Of a stretch of 64,000 bases of DNA, positions 1 through 54,024 are shown one piece after another. The number at the start of each line of letters is the position of its first letter. Within the stretch, counting starts at the first letter, position 1. A model generated the notes under the pieces. The model did no database searches, was not told where the DNA came from, and saw only the letters and a program-made list of their open reading frames with translations. The position numbers and the translations under genes are program-made. The stretch comes from an uncultured Candidatus Peribacteria bacterium (lineage in GTDB: Bacteria > Patescibacteriota > Gracilibacteria > BD1-5 > JAGOOR01), in assembly GCA_964632405.1 (NCBI GenBank), contig CAZWBM010000001.1, positions 40,850 through 104,849 on the forward strand. Direction: 5' to 3'.

Positions 1-1012
1 CAGGACTGATGTGCATAATTCTCCTCTCGGCCAATTCAGCGCAAAAGACACTATCCCAAACGAAGAAGTCATCATCACTCTCTCAAAACAAGGGTATGTG
101 AAGCGTCTCAAGGCAGGCACCTATCGAACACAGAAACGAGGCGGAATGGGTGTCGCAACAGCAACAAAGGAAGAAGACGAGATCCAGATCCTACTCTCGA
201 GCAACAATCACGATGATCTCTGGTTTTTCACCTCATCCGGACGAGTATTCCAGCTCCCAACCTATGAAATCCCAGAATTCTCTCGTACAGCGAAGGGCTC
301 CCCTATCGTGAATTTCATATCACTCCAACCAACGGAATCTATTTCGACTATTCTCAATGCTAATGAAGCAACGAAGCCATTCCTCTTTTTCGCGACACAG
401 CAAGGGACCGTGAAGCGACTTGAGCGAGAAGAGATCAGCAATATCAGAACTTCAGGACTTATCGTCATAAAAGTTGAAGAAGGCGACCAACTCGGCTGGG
501 TACGTCCAACCAGTGGTTCAGATATGATGCTCCTTGTCTCAAACGAGGGACAAGCTATCCAATTCCCGGAAACCGATGTCCGAGCTATGGGTCGATCTGC
601 CATGGGTGTGCGATGAATCCGACTCAAAGGAAAAGACACTCTCGTCACCGCTTCAGTCGTTTCAAAAGAGATGAAATACGTCTTCACTGCTTCAGGCCGT
701 GGTCTCGGAAAACTCTCCGACATAGAGGATTATCGATCACAGGGGCGAGGTGGATCTGGAGTAAAAGTCAGTTCCGTAACACCGAAAACCGGTAAAATCA
801 TCGCCGCAACCATGCTCTCAGAAGATGATCGAAAGACCGCCGATTTCCTCCTCGTCACCAAATCAGGCCAAACAGTCCGTATGCCTCTCAAGGACGTCCG
901 TCTCACAGGCCGTGTCGCTCAAGGTGTCATCCTCACACGTCTCAAAGACGATGATGCCGTCACTTCTATGAGTATCGTGAGGGAGCGGGAGGATGACGAA
1001 GAAACGAAGTAA
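1..1012 (+). CDS. gyrA: DNA gyrase subunit A, C-terminal part (5' end outside window)
   Basis: Track ORFs 11-616 and 671-1012 share one frame. They join through TGA 614-616, which sits at the Gly of the GyrA C-terminal motif GVR-G-IRL. Repeated blade motifs (RGGxGV) are present. TAA stop at 1010-1012. Confidence 0.9.
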
Positions 1013-1075
1013 AAATTATTATTGACATAGATAAATTAAATATTATTATTTAGTTACTTTATAGTAATAAAAAAT

Positions 1076-1528
1076 ATGGGATTAATGACTCAAGAAGAAG
1101 TAGCTGCTTTGGATACAAAAATACAACAATTAGTCAGAACTCAACAAGGTCACACAAGAGACATGAGGGATGCACTGAGCCAATCAAGTGAAACTTGGCA
1201 TGATAATGCGCCCAGGGATGTCGTGTTAGATGCTGCAAAAGTATCTGCACAGAGCCTTCAAGCATTAACAAAAGAACGAACAGCTGCAATTATCGGAGCT
1301 CCAGAAGGAAATAATGATAGAGTCGGTTTATTTACGAAATTCGGATTAGAAAATTTAGAAAACAGCGAAGTCCAGCATTACCAGCTTACAGGATCTGGCA
1401 ATTTTCTCGAAATACCCGAAGGAGTTTCCTGTGATTCTCCTCTAGGGAGAGAAGTCTTTTGAAAAGAATTCTTTGATAGAGTTCATTTTAGTGGTACAGA
1501 TTACATGATTGTCCCTTGGGAAGAATAA
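1076..1528 (+). CDS. GreA/GreB-family transcription factor-like protein (divergent)
   Basis: ORF 1076-1462 continues through TGA 1460-1462 to TAA 1526-1528. The C-terminal segment SPLGREVF-G-KEFFDRV resembles the GreA SPxGxALxGK motif, and the N-terminal half looks like a coiled coil. Confidence 0.55.
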
Positions 1529-1529
1529 T

Positions 1530-2102
1530 ATGAATACATTCCCTCCTATCATTATCGAATGACCTGATGGGATAGGCAAGACAACTCTTGCCAATTGAAT
1601 AGCACGTAATTTAGGATGAAAATATTACAAAACACCTGGCTGTAGAAATCCGGAACAAAGGGCCCAATACGATAAAGCCAATATAAGTGTTACTGATAGA
1701 TTCCAATTTTATCTCACAGCATGCAGAGAAGATATCCAAATCATCCAGGACATGCAGTCAAAAGGTGATATGGTTGTGTGTGACAGACTTTTAGCCTCAA
1801 CTATAGCACATCATCAAGCCATGGATGAAACCATAGATATAACAGATGCTCTGGCAGCAAGTGAAAGTATAACGCCAAAAATACAAATTCTTTTGACCGC
1901 AAAACAAGAAGTTATACTTCAAAGACTATCTATGAGACCAACAAGAACCAGGTTTGAAACAGATAGAGATCTACTTCAACGTACACAAGAAAGATTTTTA
2001 GCTATAATGTCATACGATCTCATTATAGATAATACTACATTATCTATTGAGGAAACCCTATGAAGAGCAACGGATTTCTTAACACATCAATTAAAACCTT
2101 AA
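1530..2102 (+). CDS. P-loop nucleotide kinase, thymidylate-kinase-like
   Basis: ATG 1530 lies 1 nt after the upstream stop. The N-terminus IIIE-G-PDGIGKTTL is a Walker A loop whose first Gly is encoded by TGA. A DRLLASTIAHHQA segment resembles the Tmk DRYxxSxxAYQ motif. Joins track ORF 1752-2063 and ends at TAA 2100-2102. Confidence 0.6.
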
Positions 2103-2106
2103 ATAA

Positions 2107-2694
2107 TTGAATATGAAAAATGAATATGAAATTAAATTCACCTCTATCAACAGGGACATTGTGAAGAAAAAATTAAAAGAAATAGGATTTATATGCACGC
2201 AAGAAGAATTTTTATCAAGACGAAAAACCTTTCATCCCATGCATTCAGCACTGAACGAATGGTTCAGAGTAAGATCACAGCTGGGACGTGTAACCATGGC
2301 CTATAAATGTATTCACTCAAATCATGAAATATCAGGAACAGAGGAGATAGAAATATCGGTAAATGATTTTGAGGATGCAAGCAATATTTTGATCAAAACA
2401 TGACTAAAAAATACATCTTCTCAGGAAAATAAAAGAGAGATATGGAATAGAAAAGAAATAGAAATCTGTATAGATACCTGGCCTGGTCTGAATCCATATA
2501 TTGAAATTGAGTGACCTGATGAAAAGAGCGTAAGGGGAATAGTCGAAGAAATGCTGCTCGATTGGTCAACATGACTCTTTTGAGGGTCAGAAGTAGTCTA
2601 TGAAAGAGAATTAGGTATTTCACCAGAAGTATTTATAAAAATTCCCAACATATCTTTTGATAACCCTCCAAAAATATGAACTTTGGAAATATAA
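2107..2694 (+). CDS. CYTH-domain protein (class IV adenylate cyclase / triphosphate tunnel metalloenzyme family)
   Basis: N-terminal YEIKF (ExExK signature), with later EEIEISV and YIEIE-G-PDE acidic strands. ORF 2107-2403 extends through five in-frame TGA codons to TAA 2692-2694. Confidence 0.65.
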
Positions 2695-3596
2695 ATGAAG
2701 TTTGATCTGTAAGATTGAAAATATTTGAGCCCTGTAATTGGTCCTGTGAGTGGTGCCATAACGAGTGAGGCATAGCTGCACAAGCTATTCAATGGAGCAA
2801 AGAGACAGAGGATGTCCTCAATATTCTCAGAAAGGAATGTACTATAAATGAAGTCCATCTGACATGAGGGGAACCAACGCTCAACCCTCATCTAGCTGGA
2901 ATCATGCAATGATGCAAAAGTAATGGTTTTGTTACCAAATTGACCAGCAATGGACAATTTTCACCAAAAATACGAGATGATATAGTTGGAGCTGGTATTG
3001 ATGCGATGACAGTATCGCTTCATTCAGTTGTGCCGGAAGATTTAGTGCGAATGATGCGAAAACCGGTTGATACAGAATGGGCTAAGAGACAAATTGAAAC
3101 GTCCAAAACAAACATAATAACTCTTAACCAAAACTGAGTTAAAGTGCGCATTAATTCAGTTATATCTTGACCAGAAGATGTAGAAAGAGTACTGGAAGTT
3201 TTTCGCTTCGCCACAGAGCAAGGCGTAGAAATGAGGCTACTCGACGATTTAACCAGAAAGGAACAAGCCTGAAAGGCAATAGAATGAATGATAAAGGAGC
3301 ATAGGGCAGAACATATACGTACAGAACGTGAACCGGGGACATCAAGCTCAAGATCCTTATATAATTTTCCAAAAATATGACCATTGGTCATCAAGAGAAT
3401 TGAAAAAATATTCTTGCGAGAAGTGTGTGAGCAATGTGACCATTTTGGTAAGGATTCGTGTCAGGAGGGTTTTTATAATGTGCGCTTACAAAAAAAAGCG
3501 TGAGAATGGATGGTGTTATTATGTATTCAAAATAAAAATGGAGATACTGTGATGCCTTTACCAGAATTTTTAAGAAAATATGGCAAAAACTCCTAA
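2676..3596 (+). CDS. Radical SAM enzyme, MoaA-like (GTP 3',8-cyclase family fold)
   Basis: ATG 2676 overlaps the CYTH gene by 19 nt. Motifs seen: CNWSCEWC (CxxxCxxC), VHLT-G-GEPTL with TGA at 2865-2867, LTSNG, and a C-terminal Cys cluster CEQCDHFGKDSC...LLC like the MoaA auxiliary cluster. Several in-frame TGA codons. TAA stop at 3594-3596. Confidence 0.75.
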
Positions 3597-4249
3597 ATAT
3601 TTTAGGAAAGGACTGGAAAATCCTAATTGACAATTATTTTTATATAATATTATATAACTATAATTTGCTTGTTTGAGTACTTCTATACCTATATCTGTCA
3701 CTACTTGCACCAACGATCATGAGCTCGGAACAGATGGTCGTGGATGAGAAGCAGATATAACTATTGTATGATGTTCTTTGGCGACAGAATGATCTAATCT
3801 CGCATGTCAGCATTGTACAGAAAAATATTTTTCCATGTCTGCTGTAACTGAAGTCCGAAAAAGAATCTTAAATATACAGAATACCTGAAACATAAGACGT
3901 AGACTTATATTTAAATTGAAACTCTTGCGAGATATTGGTGAGTTGATGGACAGACTCCGGGCTTACTGAACAACTCACAATACCTTTTTTCTGAGGCAAA
4001 TAGACAAAAAGCATCCCAAAATTATTACTTTTTTACAGCTCCTCAAGTCATTTTGAAATCTAGACACTGATTTTATATGAGATTATGAACAATTATTGCA
4101 AGATACTATAGAATTCTTACAAAGCTCAGTAAAAATATTACAGCAAAGGAAAATTCCAAAGTGATTTCTAGTAGATTTCCTCGCTATAAAAACACGTCGC
4201 GATGTCATGTTGCGAGTATGGTTAGCAGAATTAGAAACAGCCGAACAAG

Positions 4250-4954
4250 CTACATAAGATTATCCCGATATATCCTCCTCTGATCATTATCGTGAAATTT
4301 GAGCATCGTATCAGAAATAACAACTCACCAGGGTCTTCAGAGTTTTTCATAGGTTCGAAGTGTACGAGGAAGCCACAGTTTTTTTATGAATTTTTCAAAG
4401 ACCGAAAGAGCTCCAAAAATAACTGCGAAATTCTGCAAATATAACTGTCCAGAGGAACTTGTAACGGTAGAAACTGGTTCAACTCAATTAGCCCGCATAA
4501 AACGCTTATAGGTAGTATTTTTATTCACGAGTGGAACCAAAGTTCGGATCCATTTATCCAGATACAGATCATTTTCGATACGGATAGGGTCGAGATTCAT
4601 CGCTTCCTCAGTGATAAAAAACGAAAGGCAAAATTTATCTTTCGTACGAAGAATATATTCCGGTGTTCATTTCAGAAGTCAGTGAGTATTTCTCCGACGT
4701 ACGCCAAATATCGAGGTAAGAGCAGTCACAATAAACCTCGCAGTCCAGAGGTTTCATTTTCGGGCGATGATAAAAAGATCTATGTCTGAATTCTTATCGT
4801 GCTCCCCCATGGCTCGAGAATTACAGAGAGAAACGAGCTGGATCTGAGGAAATAAAACCAAACTTTTTAAGATCACGGAATGTCTCCAGTCTCAAATATT
4901 TGAGTTAGAGGACATGTTGTCGAGAAGAAACAAAAGGTTCACTGGAAGAAGCAT
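4250..4954 (-). CDS. Nucleotidyltransferase (Pol-beta superfamily) domain protein
   Basis: Absent from the track because of in-frame TGA codons. Hand translation gives NSRAMGEHDKNSDIDLFIIA, matching the GSxxxGxxxxxSDIDL motif. TAG stop at 4252-4250. Start is ATG 4954, with ATG 4915 as an alternative. Confidence 0.6.
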
Positions 4955-5129
4955 AGGGAACTGAACCAGTAATTGCCTGGGTAGTCCATTCTCGCATACG
5001 TGTTTGAAGTGTTAGCAAAGCTTCATCAGAAATATACGTGCTTCGATCTAATGGAAGACTGGGCCTTGAAAGAGACGAAAAATGACCTTCTCCACTTTCT
5101 ATATAGGGAACTGGCATTGAATATGGCAT
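4905..5129 (-). CDS. Hypothetical small protein (74 aa)
   Basis: Track ORF with ATG start and TAA stop, located between miaB and the nucleotidyltransferase gene. I recognise no motif. Confidence 0.25.
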   Translation of the reverse strand: MPYSMPVPYIESGEGHFSSLSRPSLPLDRSTYISDEALLTLQTRMREWTTQAITGSVPYASSSEPFVSSRQHVL

Positions 5130-5162
5130 AGAAATATTTTACTCATGCTCTCAATAAGTCAA

Positions 5163-6686
5163 TTACAGGCACTCTCCTCGTAAAACCCACCGATCGAGTT
5201 CCATTATCTTCACTGGAAGAAGGTCTCCGAGTTTAATTTTCTCATTTTTTGGAAGGAATACTTCACGAAAATTTCTGGTGCGGCCAGAAATTGTACCATC
5301 TTCTTCATCAATCTGGGAGACAAGAATAACTTCTTCGCGACCGATCATGAGTTGATTCCTCTCTTGGATGATTTCATACATGAGTGTGTTTAAACGGTCC
5401 CAGCGGTCTGCTTTGACCTCGGCAGATACTTGGTGTGGCATCCTGGACGCATAGGTCTCACGACGGGGCGAATAACGGGCAATATAGGCATAATCGAACT
5501 GGCATTCTCGGAAGGCCTTCATGGTATTCTCAAATTGCTCCTCAGTCTCTCCAGGAAATCCGACAATGACATCCGTCGAAATCCCAAAAAGAGGATCACG
5601 GCTTCGCAGATAGTCGACCATAGATCTGAAATCATCGTAGGAGTGTTTTCGGTTCATTTTTTTAAGTATGTCATTATCACCGGATTGCAGGGCAAAGTGG
5701 AGATAATGGCAACATCTCTCGAGGTCGAAATGTGCATCCAAGATGTCTCGTGTCATATCATGCGGATTCGATGAGGTGAAACGAATCCTGTCGAGCCCCG
5801 GAATATCATTCAATTTTTCCAAAAGTTCACGAAATGGAGTTCTCACTGTTGAAGCGGACCACGTTAATTCTTCGGAATTCCACAAAGTTTTTCGTGTTTC
5901 CTTGCCATAGCTATTTACGTTCTGGCCGAGCAAAGTAATTTCTTTTGCCCCTCCATGTTCGACAACTTCGACACACTCCTGGACAATCTCCTCTTGAGGT
6001 CGTGAAATCTCATGTCCACGGGTGTAGGGAACGATGCAAAATGTACAGTAATTATCACATCCCGTCTGAACAATGACATTTGCACTTCCTGAAACATCGC
6101 GTTCCTGTTTGACACGTAGATAGGATTGAAAATTATCATCCTGACCAATATCTTCGCTGTACATAATCGACAAAAGCGTTGTCAGTGAACCAATTTCCTC
6201 AATACGTACAACAAAATCGATAGTATCAACACGATTGAAGAGGTCATCGTCAGAGTTATACAGTGTCGGAATATCAAGTTTTTCTCCTGTCTGCGTCAGT
6301 GCTATTTTTGTCGTATTCTCGCGTCCTTTATAGTCATAGTATTTCTTATTCAGTCCGGTTTTTCGGGTCATACATCAGGTCAAACCCACTTTGATATCTC
6401 GCCCTGTCTTGTGGCGAAGTTTGTCTATTTCTTCCACATAGCCAAACACCTTATCTTCTCACTTCTGACGCACGGAACAGGTATTAAAGATGACGATATC
6501 CGCCTCCTCCCAAGTGTCTACTTTCGCCAGTCCAGCCTGCGCGAGGAGCATATGGATTTTTTCACTATCCGCATGGTTCATCTGACAGCCAAAAGTTTGG
6601 ATACAGAATTTTTTCTGTGCAGGTGTCCCCTTCTGCAGGGCATGACGCAGGGCGGCTACTTTTTGTGTGTCGATCGTGAGTGTCAT
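5163..6686 (-). CDS. miaB: tRNA-2-methylthio-N6-dimethylallyladenosine synthase (methylthiotransferase)
   Basis: ORFs 5163-6371 and 6459-6686 share a frame and join through two TGA codons (SVRQK-G-EDKVFG and GLT-G-CM). N-terminal FGCQMN and NTCSVR motifs, radical [11 protein letters not shown], and a C-terminal TRAM-like end. Confidence 0.9.
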
Positions 6687-7477
6687 GTAGGAGATCCGAG
6701 GACGTTAAAGAGGAACATGGCGATGAAAAGCAGTGAAGGCAGGAAGATAAAATACATTCCTGAAAGTGCAAACGCGGCGAGCAGAAGAAGCACTGGAAAG
6801 AAAACGTGCAGGACGAATACGAGAGACTGCTCATAGGTCAGACGCGGAAGCGAGGAGATCTTGCTGACGAGAAATACCACAAGCGACCAAAAAAGACTCA
6901 TAATGAAGAAAAATACTGTTAGCGCGAGTCCTGCTATCAAGAAGATCGGTATAAAGAAAGGCATAATGTTTTTCCGTACTTCCGGATAGGTAGTAAGAAA
7001 TTTTTCATTCATAAAAGCATTGTTGATTGTTTTCGTACCGATTTCCATATCGGCATATTTCACTTTTGTCATTTTTTGAGATGCGTTCTGCAGTTGGTTG
7101 ACGATAAAACCATCACGCAGGATGTAAAAACCAGAGATATTCTCATACTCTGAGGGAATATCTGAAATTTTCGTAGACACAAAAACATGCGCATCATCGA
7201 GAGAATATATGTAAGGATCTGTGGGAAATGCAGTTTTAACAAGGACATTATTCTGGAATTGGAGTTCAAAAACTGGTATTTTTGACAGCCAAGGGGAAAC
7301 TCGGTTGACAGAAGAAAAGTGCCAAATTGCACAGAGAGTACCGAGGGTTCCGAGCACAATAATGATACACCAAGAGAGTAAATAATACAGGACGCTCTGT
7401 CCTACCGTGGTGTTCTTATACCGATGAAGAAAAGACGGTGTAAAAGAGGCAGCGAAACGAGAGAAAAAAGAGGCCAT
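6656..7477 (-). CDS. DUF1189-like polytopic membrane protein
   Basis: Track ORF 6683-7477. Its apparent TGA stop is a sense codon here, so the frame runs 9 more codons to TAG 6658-6656, inside the miaB 5' end. Several hydrophobic helices. Confidence 0.6.
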
Positions 7478-44580: not shown

Positions 44581-44665
44581 TGGTGCCCAAGAGAGGACTC
44601 GAACCTCCACACCTTGCGGCACAGCCACCTCAAGGCTGCGTGTCTACCAATTTCACCACCTGGGC
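44581..44665 (-). tRNA. tRNA-Leu (anticodon GAG), CCA encoded
   Basis: The reverse complement folds by hand as follows: acceptor GCCCAGG/CTTGGGC, anticodon arm CAGCC-TTGAGGT-GGCTG, a long variable arm, T arm GGAGG-TTCGAGT-CCTCT, then ACCA. Confidence 0.9.
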
Positions 44666-51710: not shown

Positions 51711-52787
51711 ATGGCTTCTTATAAGATACATAGCATAAAAGACTCAGAAAAACTCTCTTTTATTATAGAATGAGAAAATGAATCCTCTATTTCTCAAAAA
51801 CTTTCAGCAGAAGGCCACATTATACTCTCTGTAGAAAAAATAGAGGTACCAACAGAAAATCTCTTTTGTTTCGAGGGAAGAACACCCAATGGATCCCCTA
51901 TAGAGGGGAAGATATCTGCCGACGACATCTTTCTTGCCTATGAAATGCTTAAAAAGGAATATAAATATACTCTCACAAAACTCTATCCCGAAAGCACCCG
52001 GGACGTAAAAAAACAAGAGAAAATATTCCTAGATCTTCTCGCCACATTCCAAGAAAACGTTACACAAAAGCCAAAAAAAACAACTGACACCTCTCAGAAA
52101 AACCTCCAAAAAGCCAAAAAAACACTTCAAAAACTCATCACGATACTTCAAAAAGAAAACGACCCCGCTTATCAAGACACGATATTGGAGCTCAAAAAGC
52201 TTGATCAGAACAATAATCTCAGCACTACTCAAGATTCCCTCAAAACAATTGTGAAAAAGCTTTCCCAGAACAGAGAATCATCCCTTTTTCAAACACTGCA
52301 GCCAATAAGAAAAGAAGCTGGTGTTTACCTTCTTCCCGGGCTTCTTCTTTCCCTTTGGCAAAACATGCAAAACATGTCCGGACTCTTCACTCCTATTATA
52401 CACCCCCAAGAAAAAAGAACACCAAAGCACACCGAGAAGACCCAGGACGCAATTAAAAATGAATATATAGCCATACAAAACAATAGTCATATTCACACTT
52501 TTCTCCGAAAGAAATATAGATCCAAAATATCCCACTTTTTTCACCCAAAATCCAAAACATACTATGTTTATACACTTCTTCGACAAAAAAAATCACTCTA
52601 CTTTAGCACAAAAGCTCTTTCAGTCCTCAAAAAGATCCTCATAATAGCACTCATAACCACCGTATTTGGCATGATGGTGATCCTTCTCTCTGGGCTCTAT
52701 AGTACGATGTTTGTGACCACAAGTACGACTTATATATTTTGGGGATTTATTATTGCTTCTCTTGTAATTCAGAGCGAGACAGTATAA
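51711..52787 (+). CDS. Hypothetical protein with C-terminal TM helices
   Basis: ATG 51711, in frame with track ORF 51945-52787 through TGA. Lys/Gln-rich middle region and two C-terminal hydrophobic helices. Confidence 0.55.
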
Positions 52788-52794
52788 TTTTTTC

Positions 52795-54024
52795 ATGCTG
52801 TTACTTACGAGCCTTATACATTGTATTTTTGCAGGTATTTTTTTCTTTTTCCATCGCTATGTAGAGATGACCGTGGTGATCTTGATTTGGGTAATTTTTA
52901 TCTCAAAAATTGTTCCTCCTCTCGACATCATCCGACGACCGAAATTCCTCAAGCAAAAATTGTCTGAAAGCGATGCTTTTGAGCAATCGCTCTATATCAG
53001 CTCCGGAATTCTTTTTTATACTGCGCTTGTTGGTGTCGCGCTTGGTATTGCCAATGCATTTTGACTTCCAGTTGATCTACGGCTACTCTACTACTGTATC
53101 TTTTTTCTCACGAGCGTCATTTATGGGATATACCTCCTTACCTATCCCAAAAATCCAAACACATTTGTCCTTTTTCGGACCCATACGATGATTGCCAGCA
53201 CGATTCTGAGCTTATTAACCATGACGGCACTTTTTTTCGAATGGAATTCTATTGATGGACTTATGATGATCAACATGCTTCTGGTCACCACAGGGCTTGC
53301 AATAGTAATTATATTTGATCGAAACATATCGCTTCCGGTTCACATAGCTACTATTTATTTTTTCCTTCTCGCGATTGTCTGTCTCACTGCAGGTGTAGCT
53401 TCCCTCTTCAATGACGATATTTCTATAACTCTCTTTTTTCTCCTGACCGTTCTCGGTGCTCTCTATCTCTTTTTTCCAGGACTTCAGGCTCGCACCTATA
53501 AAACCTCTCATCTTCCCGTCATTTCCTGGCATTTTTCAAACTGTATCCTCGCCTGTTCTTGGGCTATATTTGGCTATATTTTTTGGTCTCTTTTTTGGTG
53601 ACCAGAGAGAGAAGTACTTGTCATATTGCTGGATCTTCTTTTGATCTTGGGATTATGGCTCCGTGTCTACACGACAGAGAATGAGAATCCTATATTTTTC
53701 TCTGGTATAATACTAGCACTTTCGACATTTGTCGCTTACGCCATATTCATGCTTCTTCCACCTATTTTCTGGATAGTTTCAGCAGGACTCTTTGTTTTTG
53801 CAGGAGGGCTTCTCCTAGCTTCCAGAATTTATAAAAATCGTGTTCAAGAGCTTATCCTCGCGAGCGGGGCTGTGCTCTTTCTCTGTGGTTCTGATATAGT
53901 TCTGATTTTCCAAAATCATGGGCTTTTTGCCCTGTCGACCCTCTTCCTCTTCCAGTCACTTATTTGGTATGGTGCCTACGAAATTTTTCACCGTCAGGCC
54001 AATGTTAAAAAGCGAGCACTATAA
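52795..54024 (+). CDS. Polytopic integral membrane protein (409 aa)
   Basis: ORFs 52795-53064, 53188-53601 and 53626-54024 share a frame and join through TGA. At least 10 hydrophobic helices. Confidence 0.65.

Follow-up and report, generated by a model that had tools for sequence, protein, structure and literature searches.

Prokaryotic viperins are radical S-adenosylmethionine (SAM) enzymes typically encoded next to a kinase (bioRxiv 10.1101/2023.09.13.557418), and MoaA, the related enzyme of molybdenum cofactor (Moco) biosynthesis, uses three arginines at its GTP site (Arg17, Arg266 and Arg268) and a C-terminal GG motif that is essential to SAM cleavage (PMC12625886). Factors of the Gre fold bind the rim of the RNA polymerase (RNAP) secondary channel, insert a coiled coil toward the active site and resolve backtracked or misincorporated complexes, and small genomes may hold a single such factor (PMC4598747). 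Here we analyze a module of four genes that unites relatives of these proteins, located at the start of a 64,000-nucleotide stretch of contig CAZWBM010000001.1 from an uncultured Candidatus Peribacteria bacterium (hereafter the window, positions 1-64000). The module encodes, in this order, a Gre-like factor, a thymidylate-kinase-like P-loop kinase, a CYTH-family triphosphate-tunnel enzyme and a MoaA-like radical SAM enzyme. The evidence below suggests that it is a conserved and hitherto undescribed radical-SAM nucleotide system with an accessory kinase. That the module makes or processes a modified nucleotide and also couples it to RNAP is a composite proposal, to which we give an even chance, because it combines three parts: that the four genes form one functional unit, of which we are quite confident; that the substrate is a nucleotide, which is likely; and that RNAP is the site of action, which we favor with less assurance.

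The linkage of these genes is real and lies far beyond chance. Among 82 loci with the radical SAM gene, recovered by profile searches from reference genomes and two viral contigs, the CYTH gene adjoins it in 76, while a kinase gene is present in 8 and a Gre-like gene in 5. Hence, the radical SAM and CYTH genes constitute the core cassette, which the kinase and the Gre-like gene join outside the Actinobacteria and Firmicutes. At least 10 independent contexts combine a kinase, a radical SAM and a Gre-like gene, with the gene order shuffled among them; they comprise several lineages of the Candidate Phyla Radiation (CPR), Chloroflexi, defence islands and a phage, and reference genomes add Daviesbacteria, Peribacteria, Anaerolineales and Amarolinea. 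In the window and seven other non-redundant contexts these three genes stand in five different orders: 1) Gre-kinase-CYTH-radical SAM in the window and in a 54%-identical syntenic relative (L001); 2) kinase-radical SAM-Gre-CYTH-CYTH in another UGA-recoded lineage (L011); 3) radical SAM-CYTH-Gre-kinase, with the Gre-like gene on the opposite strand (L007); 4) kinase-CYTH-radical SAM-Gre (L009); and 5) kinase-radical SAM-Gre (L003, L012 and the phage contig L004). In several loci the Gre-like gene abuts or overlaps the stop codon of the radical SAM gene, at distances of -35, -32 and +1 nucleotides (nt). When the Gre-like protein served as the starting query, two of the three contexts examined held a radical SAM gene of the family (L097 and L098) and the third (L096) held none. 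Relatives of the radical SAM enzyme are present in 154 of 185,579 species representatives (one genome per species) and span at least 4 phyla, with members in Daviesbacteria, Peribacteria, Saccharimonadia, Anaerolineales, Amarolinea, many Actinomycetota, the Streptococcus mitis/pneumoniae group and Paenibacillus.

These results bear on a preliminary description of the locus, made from its letters and reading frames, which had treated the four genes as one unit and had named their absence of linkage in related genomes as a ground for abandoning the idea. The genes are linked in the relatives, and the linkage is kept across phyla in shuffled orders; that ground for refutation clearly fails and the single unit is upheld. 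The choice of partners in that description has to be revised in two respects. It had stressed the pairing of the radical SAM enzyme with a kinase, whereas the CYTH gene is the most universal partner, and it had passed over the Gre-like gene as a bystander. In many lineages, however, that gene accompanies those for the radical SAM enzyme and the kinase, and natural proteins exist in which its product is joined to the radical SAM enzyme. We regard the Gre-like gene as the most telling partner because of this co-occurrence and fusion.

In addition to the four genes, some loci show recurrent neighbors. In one CPR-type locus (L097, 2539-9119, GCA_036681025.1) a single Gre-like gene is surrounded by two radical SAM-CYTH pairs and by genes for a Tmk-like kinase, for a SET-domain protein and for a HATPase_c protein of 549 residues. 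A SET-domain gene also lies near the Gre-like gene of L098, which suggests that this protein is a further recurrent partner. In L098 two open reading frames (ORFs) at 5207-6393, beside a Gre-like gene of class B, are fragments of the radical SAM protein, matching positions 209-304 and 103-306 of its hidden Markov model; the enzyme has apparently decayed there while the Gre-like gene was kept.

The most direct connection between the enzyme and the factor comes from natural fusions. In three representatives of the radical SAM family, P0154, P0172 and P0200, one polypeptide carries the radical SAM domain and, C-terminal to it, a complete Gre module. Each is the sole member of its cluster at the 90% level, and a check of the ORF at the DNA level covers P0154 and P0200. 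P0154 (L102) is encoded by an uninterrupted ORF when read with the standard code, its contig was seen in 4 samples, and the coiled-coil tip of the protein, QSSETWHDN, is the window's own. It is abutted upstream by a P-loop kinase of a different family (ADK/AAA_17-like) and followed by a CYTH gene; as judged from these sequences, the locus is the four-part set of the window, except that two of the parts are joined and an analogue stands in for the kinase. The junction in P0200 (L101) is also continuous, and a TAA separates its CxxxCxxC motif from the remainder near the 5' end; because of this premature stop the gene may be decaying. When metagenomes were scanned for the P0154 fusion, the only match was a Gre-like gene standing by itself (L100). 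As the N-terminus of Gre lies at the channel entrance, a partner fused N-terminal to it would sit at the mouth of the NTP-entry channel, and by analogy with known Gre complexes we infer such a position at the secondary-channel mouth for the fused enzyme.

Beside the P0154 set (L102, 3124-7480) are found a response regulator, a Crp-family regulator binding cyclic nucleoside monophosphates, a NUDIX hydrolase and an ASCH protein, as well as three more small P-loop kinases (AAA_33/AAA_18), which makes for a strikingly nucleotide-centred neighborhood. The radical SAM family includes two other fusions, both singletons: P0121 (606 residues) with an N-terminal SorC-type 'Sugar-bind' domain and P0235 (570 residues) with a C-terminal TPR region.

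By profile comparison and by the model of its orthologue, the product of the first gene is a full-length factor of the Gre/Gfh1 family. The profile of the Gre-like family matches Thermus Gfh1 over its full length (5e-11), GreA (1e-9) and Rnk (1e-4). The structure considered here is an AlphaFold proxy, that of the orthologue in L001 (P0021; 55% identity to the window protein, predicted local distance difference test (pLDDT) 84.6). In this model, helices 6-36 and 45-70 run antiparallel with the tip loop between them and are succeeded by a beta-rich C-terminal domain, and the whole superimposes on RNAP-bound Gfh1 with a template modelling (TM) score of 0.71-0.72 and on GreB with one of 0.72. Profile and model thus agree in the two-domain architecture of Gre/Gfh1 proteins. 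The best GreA model of NCBIfam scores 30.8 against an equivalog cutoff of 145, the Pfam match to the GreA_GreB C-terminal domain is sub-threshold (21.8 versus a cutoff of 26.9) and GreA_GreB_N (PF03449) finds no match in the protein. In the Gre/Gfh1 family two acidic residues at the coiled-coil tip are important to function. The tip of the window protein reads QSSETWHDNAP ('class A'). Its acidic residues E39 and D43 (in SETWHD) are one residue wider apart than those of the DxxE of GreA, and D43 alone is invariant across the Gre-like proteins of the modules; a motif of the form SP[LIV]G is conserved in them.

The radical SAM protein of the window shows the motifs CNWSCEWC (the CxxxCxxC of the superfamily, C20, C24 and C27) and TGGEPTL, and its only Pfam matches are Radical_SAM and Fer4_12. 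Four C-terminal cysteines (251, 254, 262 and 283) are invariant throughout the family and form a putative second site of the pattern CX2CX7C...C. The closest solved structure by profile is MoaA of Staphylococcus aureus (2.4e-23), with viperin at about 1e-5. The fold was compared by Foldseek through a proxy, the model of the homologue P0005 (35% identity to the window protein, pLDDT 87), which aligns over its full length with MoaA (1.6e-14, TM score 0.58-0.61) and with viperins and viperin-like proteins no more strongly than 5e-8 (TM score 0.43-0.50); it is also structurally similar to the peptide-modifying enzymes SuiB and SkfB. The protein nevertheless falls far short of the MoaA equivalogs: it scores 82.8 versus 325.25 for TIGR02668 (moaA_archaeal), 73.8 versus 284.05 for TIGR02666 and 72.1 versus 231 for NF001199. 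Mob_synth_C (PF06463) finds no Pfam match in it, and a canonical MoaA with that domain surfaces only at 1.6e-5 in the homologue search.

A comparison of the functional positions of MoaA with those of the family showed that: 1) the equivalent of Arg17 (R13 in the window) is conserved, and Arg266 and Arg268 align with H256 and G258 of the window protein, at columns that vary across the family. 2) The window protein ends in ...RKYGKNS and no family member has the GG ending. 3) From the CX2CX13C motif that holds the auxiliary [4Fe-4S] cluster of MoaA, C261 and C264 align with the CxxC of the family, and the position of C278, after FYG, is occupied by I, V or L. 4) Lys69 and Arg71 of MoaA, which are said to have a role in triphosphate binding in the 2006 paper on the MoaA-GTP structure, correspond to an invariant Glu and His. 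No Moco gene (moaC, moaB/mog, moaD/E or moeA) adjoins the family members in about 20 contexts with precomputed Pfam or RefSeq annotation. The viperin model NF038283 (viperin_w_prok) is missed by a wide distance (57.3 versus 180), and the pVip models of PADLOC match only residues 12-165, the N-terminal half (5e-17). An exhaustive profile search of 1.84 billion proteins delimits a family of 171 representative clusters (50% identity) at E<=1e-30, well separated from generic radical SAM matches. NCBIfam (June 2026) and PADLOC hold no model for this family, and RefSeq names its members merely 'radical SAM protein'. On sequence and modelled fold, then, the enzyme is MoaA-like and not MoaA, is no viperin either, and belongs to a distinct small family.

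The kinase is assigned to Thymidylate_kin with 62.3 bits against a Pfam cutoff of 27, and the solved structures nearest to it are those of Tmk (about 2e-14), but it stays below the dTMP-kinase equivalog TIGR00041 (56.7 versus 83.25). In PADLOC it matches PDC-M51B (5.7e-21) and VakA (4e-12), as do all 11 of the 11 module kinases, with best values of 3e-32 and 1e-22, respectively. These scores indicate a likeness to the viperin-associated VakA and the defence candidate PDC-M51B that is at least as great as that to dTMP kinase. The conserved residues comprise the P-loop (G11, G16 and K17), the arginines R44 and R57 of the nucleoside monophosphate (NMP) site, a DR motif (DRL) and R132 and R136 of the LID. 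The CYTH protein passes the Pfam cutoff of its family (38.3 versus 23.2), has the ExExK motif and the charged tunnel residues, of which E4, E6, R52, R54, R108, D121, E131 and E133 are invariant in 15 sequences, and just misses the CyaB equivalog (TIGR00318 cyaB, 57.6 versus 57.95). Its nearest solved structures are the archaeal triphosphate-tunnel metalloenzyme (TTM) Saci_0718 (2.6e-22) and Pfu 1YEM, with a class IV adenylate cyclase at 1e-13. All three enzymes of the module have intact catalytic motifs.

The resemblance of the last gene product to MoaA asserted in the preliminary description is therefore correct as far as closest kinship goes, by profile and by fold, yet the protein fails the tests for MoaA itself; the CxxxCxxC, the GGEPTL and the cluster of C-terminal cysteines are all present as listed there, and the family assignments of all four proteins hold at the superfamily level (Pfam values in the table below). 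Its further suggestion of a viperin-like arrangement survives in one half: the kinase does resemble VakA and PDC-M51B, but the radical SAM enzyme is set apart from viperins by its score, its MoaA-nearer fold and its four-cysteine site.

The genes can be read only in a recoded frame. Under translation table 25 (UGA as glycine) the longest ORF of the window grows from the 775 residues of table 11 to 1824 residues, and the summed length of ORFs of at least 100 residues is twice that under table 11. UGA codons occupy residues 31, 64 and 154 of the radical SAM protein, 11 of the kinase (the first Gly of Walker A), 129 of the Gre-like factor and 97 of the CYTH protein. In alignments of standard-code homologues glycine is invariant or near-invariant at these columns and tryptophan dominates at none of them, which argues for UGA as glycine and supports table 25 as the code of the whole window, as had been assumed earlier. 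Table 4 (UGA as tryptophan) is ruled out in favor of table 25 by the same conserved-glycine columns. Table 11 is ruled out as well, since it fragments all four genes and leaves short ORFs in the region 1076-3626. UGA as glycine is typical of candidate phyla of the Gracilibacteria/Absconditabacteria type. ARAGORN finds no UGA-reading tRNA in the 64-kb window, in which a tRNA-Leu is the sole tRNA, and the window contains no second tmk or greA.

All four genes are co-directional, with 1 nt between the Gre-like and kinase genes and an overlap of 19 nt between the CYTH and radical SAM genes, both as previously stated. The gap of 4 nt formerly given between kinase and CYTH holds only if the latter starts at TTG 2107; with the ATG at 2113, preferred on account of homology, it is 10 nt. 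The end of the last gene has been moved as well, 30 nt upstream of the 3626 originally given. The predicted promoter, the best match in 900-5200, falls between gyrA and the first gene, which lie 63 nt apart. No convincing internal terminator was found within the four-gene region, and no riboswitch or other RNA element was found in the window or upstream of 11 modules.

Table 1. Features of the module and its surroundings, in positions of the window
Feature	Positions	Strand	Remarks
Predicted sigma-70-like promoter, TTGACA-16 nt-TATTAT	1022..1049	+	11/12 consensus matches
Gre/Gfh1-family RNA polymerase secondary-channel factor, 150 aa	1076..1528	+	UGA at 1460 = Gly129; Pfam GreA_GreB C-terminal 2e-4
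Thymidylate-kinase-fold P-loop nucleoside-monophosphate kinase, 190 aa	1530..2102	+	Pfam Thymidylate_kin 6e-17
CYTH / triphosphate-tunnel metalloenzyme, 193 aa	2113..2694	+	Alternative start TTG 2107; Pfam CYTH 1.6e-9
MoaA-like radical SAM enzyme, 306 aa	2676..3596	+	Pfam Radical_SAM 1.2e-14
ORF, may not be a gene	3664..4257	+	No family match
ORF between the module and miaB	4250..5011	-	Weak Pol-beta/NTP_transf_2 nucleotidyltransferase signature (GEHDKNSDIDLF); Pfam 2.5e-4, sub-cutoff
miaB frame	5163..6704		513 codons stop to stop
tRNA-Leu(GAG)	44581..44665		Sole tRNA in the window
GC-skew dip	52001..54000		-0.207, sharp against neighbouring 2-kb bins

Downstream of the module, the miaB gene of the syntenic relative (L001, 5756-7771, minus strand) encodes 671 residues, with an endonuclease-like DUF559 inserted between two Radical_SAM matches; this insert may be a mobile element such as a homing endonuclease or an intein.

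The settings of the module differ between lineages. The kinase-radical SAM-Gre trio is flanked in L003 by AbiU (6e-37), an AriA/LmuB-like ATPase and a type IIG restriction-modification gene, and in L012 by a GajB/NERD-UvrD-like helicase; the fusion locus L101 lies beside SoFic/PDC-S04, PDC-S01 (1e-103), an AbiO/Nhi-like helicase and a MazG-like gene. The phage copy (L004) lies on a 62.7-kb contig with a Mu-type portal that is also present in IMG/VR; a search of the INPHARED phages gave no match. As the trio sits in defence islands in ordinary bacteria and a phage, its role there is probably antiviral or competitive. In the window the module behaves as a stable chromosomal feature, and in this UGA-recoded CPR-type genome it could serve in defence, in antagonism of a host cell or in transcription control, since it lies in a stable housekeeping neighborhood.

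The radical SAM-CYTH pair keeps other company in Streptococcus and on a megaplasmid of Bacillus cereus, in the order ATP-grasp ligase - radical SAM - CYTH - a protein of about 405 residues with a faint likeness to alanyl-tRNA synthetase (AlaRS) - second ATP-grasp ligase - MFS transporter (Streptococcus sp., L015, 3318-12746; B. cereus plasmid NZ_CP063160.1, L099, 7673-14237). Two Rgg genes precede the Streptococcus cluster, a relaxase or integrase gene adjoins, and the B. cereus copy lies beside a cyclodipeptide synthase/P450 pair. Its gene content suggests a mobile and cryptic biosynthetic cluster, the product of which would be exported and derive from a nucleoside. The actinobacterial pairs (L029-L093; Streptomyces, Nocardia, Kitasatospora and relatives) are often flanked by an HTH/TPR regulator of about 480 residues, an anti-sigma-like HATPase_c_2 protein, a NUDIX hydrolase and an HTH_31-DUF5753 regulator, in a rough neighbor analysis whose simple ORF caller gave antisense artefacts on these high-GC loci (cluster 2). 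The neighbors of L025 gave no clear signal.

The nearest small-molecule relatives of the radical SAM enzyme, MoaA (with GTP), AbmM, BlsE and viperin, act on nucleotides or nucleosides, and we infer from this that it would alter the base or the sugar of a nucleotide. The Tmk-like kinase would supply the substrate or re-phosphorylate the modified NMP, and the CYTH enzyme would hydrolyse or cyclise a triphosphate, so that several orders of steps are conceivable. The invariant Glu and His at the positions of Lys69 and Arg71, given the role that those MoaA residues reportedly have, hint that the substrate is possibly not a triphosphate; in that case CYTH, radical SAM enzyme and kinase acting in this order would be a coherent sequence. 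The Gre-like factor would dock the system where the secondary channel opens, and from there the product could reach the active site of RNAP at a high local concentration, or factor and product could act jointly in the manner of DksA and ppGpp; in either case transcription would be inhibited or reprogrammed. More tentative, and on balance doubtful, is the stronger version in which the radical SAM enzyme works while docked on RNAP through the Gre-type factor, a separate subunit in the window and a fused domain elsewhere, delivering a radical-generated nucleotide analogue straight to the active site or modifying the extruded 3' end of the RNA. If it holds, candidate-phyla bacteria, Chloroflexi and phages would share an immune or regulatory system of a new class, directed at transcription.

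Several points weigh against a nucleotide system coupled to RNAP. The composite claim rests wholly on homology and gene context. Most family members, in Actinobacteria, Streptococcus and Bacillus, have the radical SAM and CYTH genes without a Gre-like gene, and docking on RNAP is for this reason not universal. Of the three fusions, two are singletons that lack replication, and the copy in L101 is the one with the premature TAA. Tips of classes A and B are common among CPR proteins whose contexts fall outside this survey, and a class C gene (L096) stands alone among housekeeping genes. The Gre-like gene may simply be, or double as, the general Gre factor of the cell in CPR and perhaps in this genome, as the class A tip is abundant in CPR and small genomes can have one Gre factor. 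The module of the window lies between the housekeeping genes gyrA and miaB, and this synteny is kept in the approximately 54%-identical L001, unlike in a typical defence island. Finally, it is puzzling that one pathway should contain both a phosphate-removing and a phosphate-adding enzyme.

The Firmicute cluster, with its ATP-grasp ligases, AlaRS-like protein, MFS transporter, Rgg and relaxase or integrase, invites an alternative in which the product is an exported nucleoside-type antibiotic, possibly aimed at the RNAP of other cells, the Gre-like factor confers self-resistance by clearing poisoned complexes and the kinase sees to precursor supply. Clearing of this kind is in keeping with the known action of Gre factors on backtracked and misincorporated complexes (PMC4598747), but the tip of the Gre-like protein resembles that of the inhibitor Gfh1 at least as much as that of the cleavage factor GreA, and a resistance role does not predict that a biosynthetic enzyme be fused to its immunity factor. 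Moreover, neither a ligase nor an exporter is encoded near the window's module or the other modules containing the kinase or the Gre-like gene, and we consider an exported antibiotic unlikely. The fusion, in placing the enzyme at the polymerase, would also suit a macromolecular substrate, with the Gre-docked enzyme modifying RNAP or the RNA 3' end in the secondary channel. For the phage copies this could take the form of a hypermodified dNTP destined for DNA, with the Gre-like factor helping transcription through the modified templates; phages often pair dNMP kinases with base-modifying enzymes. The putative second Fe-S site and the structural similarity to SuiB and SkfB are compatible with a polymeric substrate, but a near-universal triphosphate-tunnel partner and a recurrent NMP kinase point to small nucleotides, and most family members are without any Gre partner. 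The two macromolecular variants together have, in our estimate, only a slender chance of being right.

If the enzyme were instead a true prokaryotic viperin, it would make a 3'-deoxy-3',4'-didehydro-NTP chain terminator, with the kinase feeding it as CMPK2 does. The pVip match to its N-terminal half and the VakA match of the kinase speak for this; the score of 57.3 versus 180 for NF038283, the profile values of 2e-23 for MoaA versus about 1e-5 and the TM scores of about 0.6 versus 0.43-0.50 speak against it, and the four invariant C-terminal cysteines are not known from viperins. The adjacency of a kinase is that of viperin loci, but neither CYTH nor Gre partners figure in the description of those systems (bioRxiv 10.1101/2023.09.13.557418), and we judge a viperin very improbable. 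Hardly more can be said for a chance array of housekeeping genes, in which the cell's GreA, its sole thymidylate kinase, a stray CYTH protein and a MoaA for Moco happen to be neighbors. Each protein does have the corresponding housekeeping family as its best named match, gyrA and miaB flank the module, one Gre-like gene stands alone in a CPR contig (L096) and small genomes may have one Gre only (PMC4598747). However, all four proteins remain under the equivalog cutoffs, the radical SAM enzyme is without Arg266, Arg268, the GG tail and the third cluster cysteine of MoaA, and no moaC, moaB or moaE lies beside any family member inspected. The gene set, furthermore, recurs in a phage, in defence islands and in organisms (Chloroflexi, Kitasatospora) that should possess tmk and greA genes of their own, and fusions join the radical SAM enzyme to the Gre module; the housekeeping explanation is the least probable of those considered.

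For a nucleotide system coupled to RNAP, the full text of about 8.3 million papers and the family libraries searched yielded no description of a radical SAM enzyme linked with CYTH, Gre or any secondary-channel factor, and nothing relevant to VakA and PDC-M51 was found in the full-text literature. If correct, the proposal would add to viperin a second and independent way in which radical SAM enzymes give rise to nucleotides directed at polymerases. It would also be the first instance of a biosynthetic enzyme having recruited a secondary-channel factor, be it as a partner or as a fusion domain. Functions would be provided for an unnamed radical SAM family, for a dedicated CYTH enzyme and for three hitherto unexplained subfamilies of Gre-like proteins, abundant among candidate-phyla bacteria, and the proposal would explain a cryptic cluster in strains of the Streptococcus mitis/pneumoniae group and on plasmids of Bacillus cereus. 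Possible new nucleotide analogues acting on bacterial RNAP would be a further consequence.

Compared with the known systems, the radical SAM enzyme shares with MoaA its profile and fold, the CxxxCxxC and GGEP motifs, the Arg17 equivalent and the CxxC of the auxiliary cluster, and MoaA acts on a nucleoside triphosphate. It differs from MoaA in having no Mob_synth_C match, no Arg266 or Arg268, no GG tail and no third cluster cysteine, in two extra invariant cysteines and in Glu and His for Lys69 and Arg71; its partners are CYTH, the kinase and the Gre-like factor, and in the contexts inspected it is never beside moaC or other Moco genes. The CYTH protein keeps all catalytic tunnel residues of TTMs such as Saci_0718 and CyaB, so that both hydrolysis and cyclisation are possible, and differs from them in its dedication to a radical SAM partner, which is new. 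With Gfh1, Rv3788, GreA and Rnk the module factor has in common the two-domain architecture, in which a globular C-terminal domain follows an extended antiparallel coiled coil, as well as the SP[LIV]G motif and one or more acidic tip residues. Its tips, QSSETWHDNAP, GAMQSHSDTSKFQ and MQSRYDTQ[KR]E, are nonetheless distinct, with one invariant acidic residue only, and genetic coupling or fusion to a radical SAM enzyme has not been reported for any such factor. The DksA-ppGpp pair, of which the module is not a member, sets a precedent in which RNAP is acted on jointly by a channel factor and a small nucleotide. With pVip and its kinases, the pairing to which it comes closest in its workings without belonging to it, the module shares the pairing of a radical SAM enzyme with an NMP kinase, the residence in defence islands and mobile elements and the match of its kinases to VakA; it differs in that its radical SAM enzyme fails the viperin cutoff and the fold ranking and has the extra four-cysteine site, and in that a near-universal CYTH partner and a Gre-family factor as partner or fusion have not been described for viperins. 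The two systems plausibly share a working logic, in which an altered NTP interferes with polymerases.

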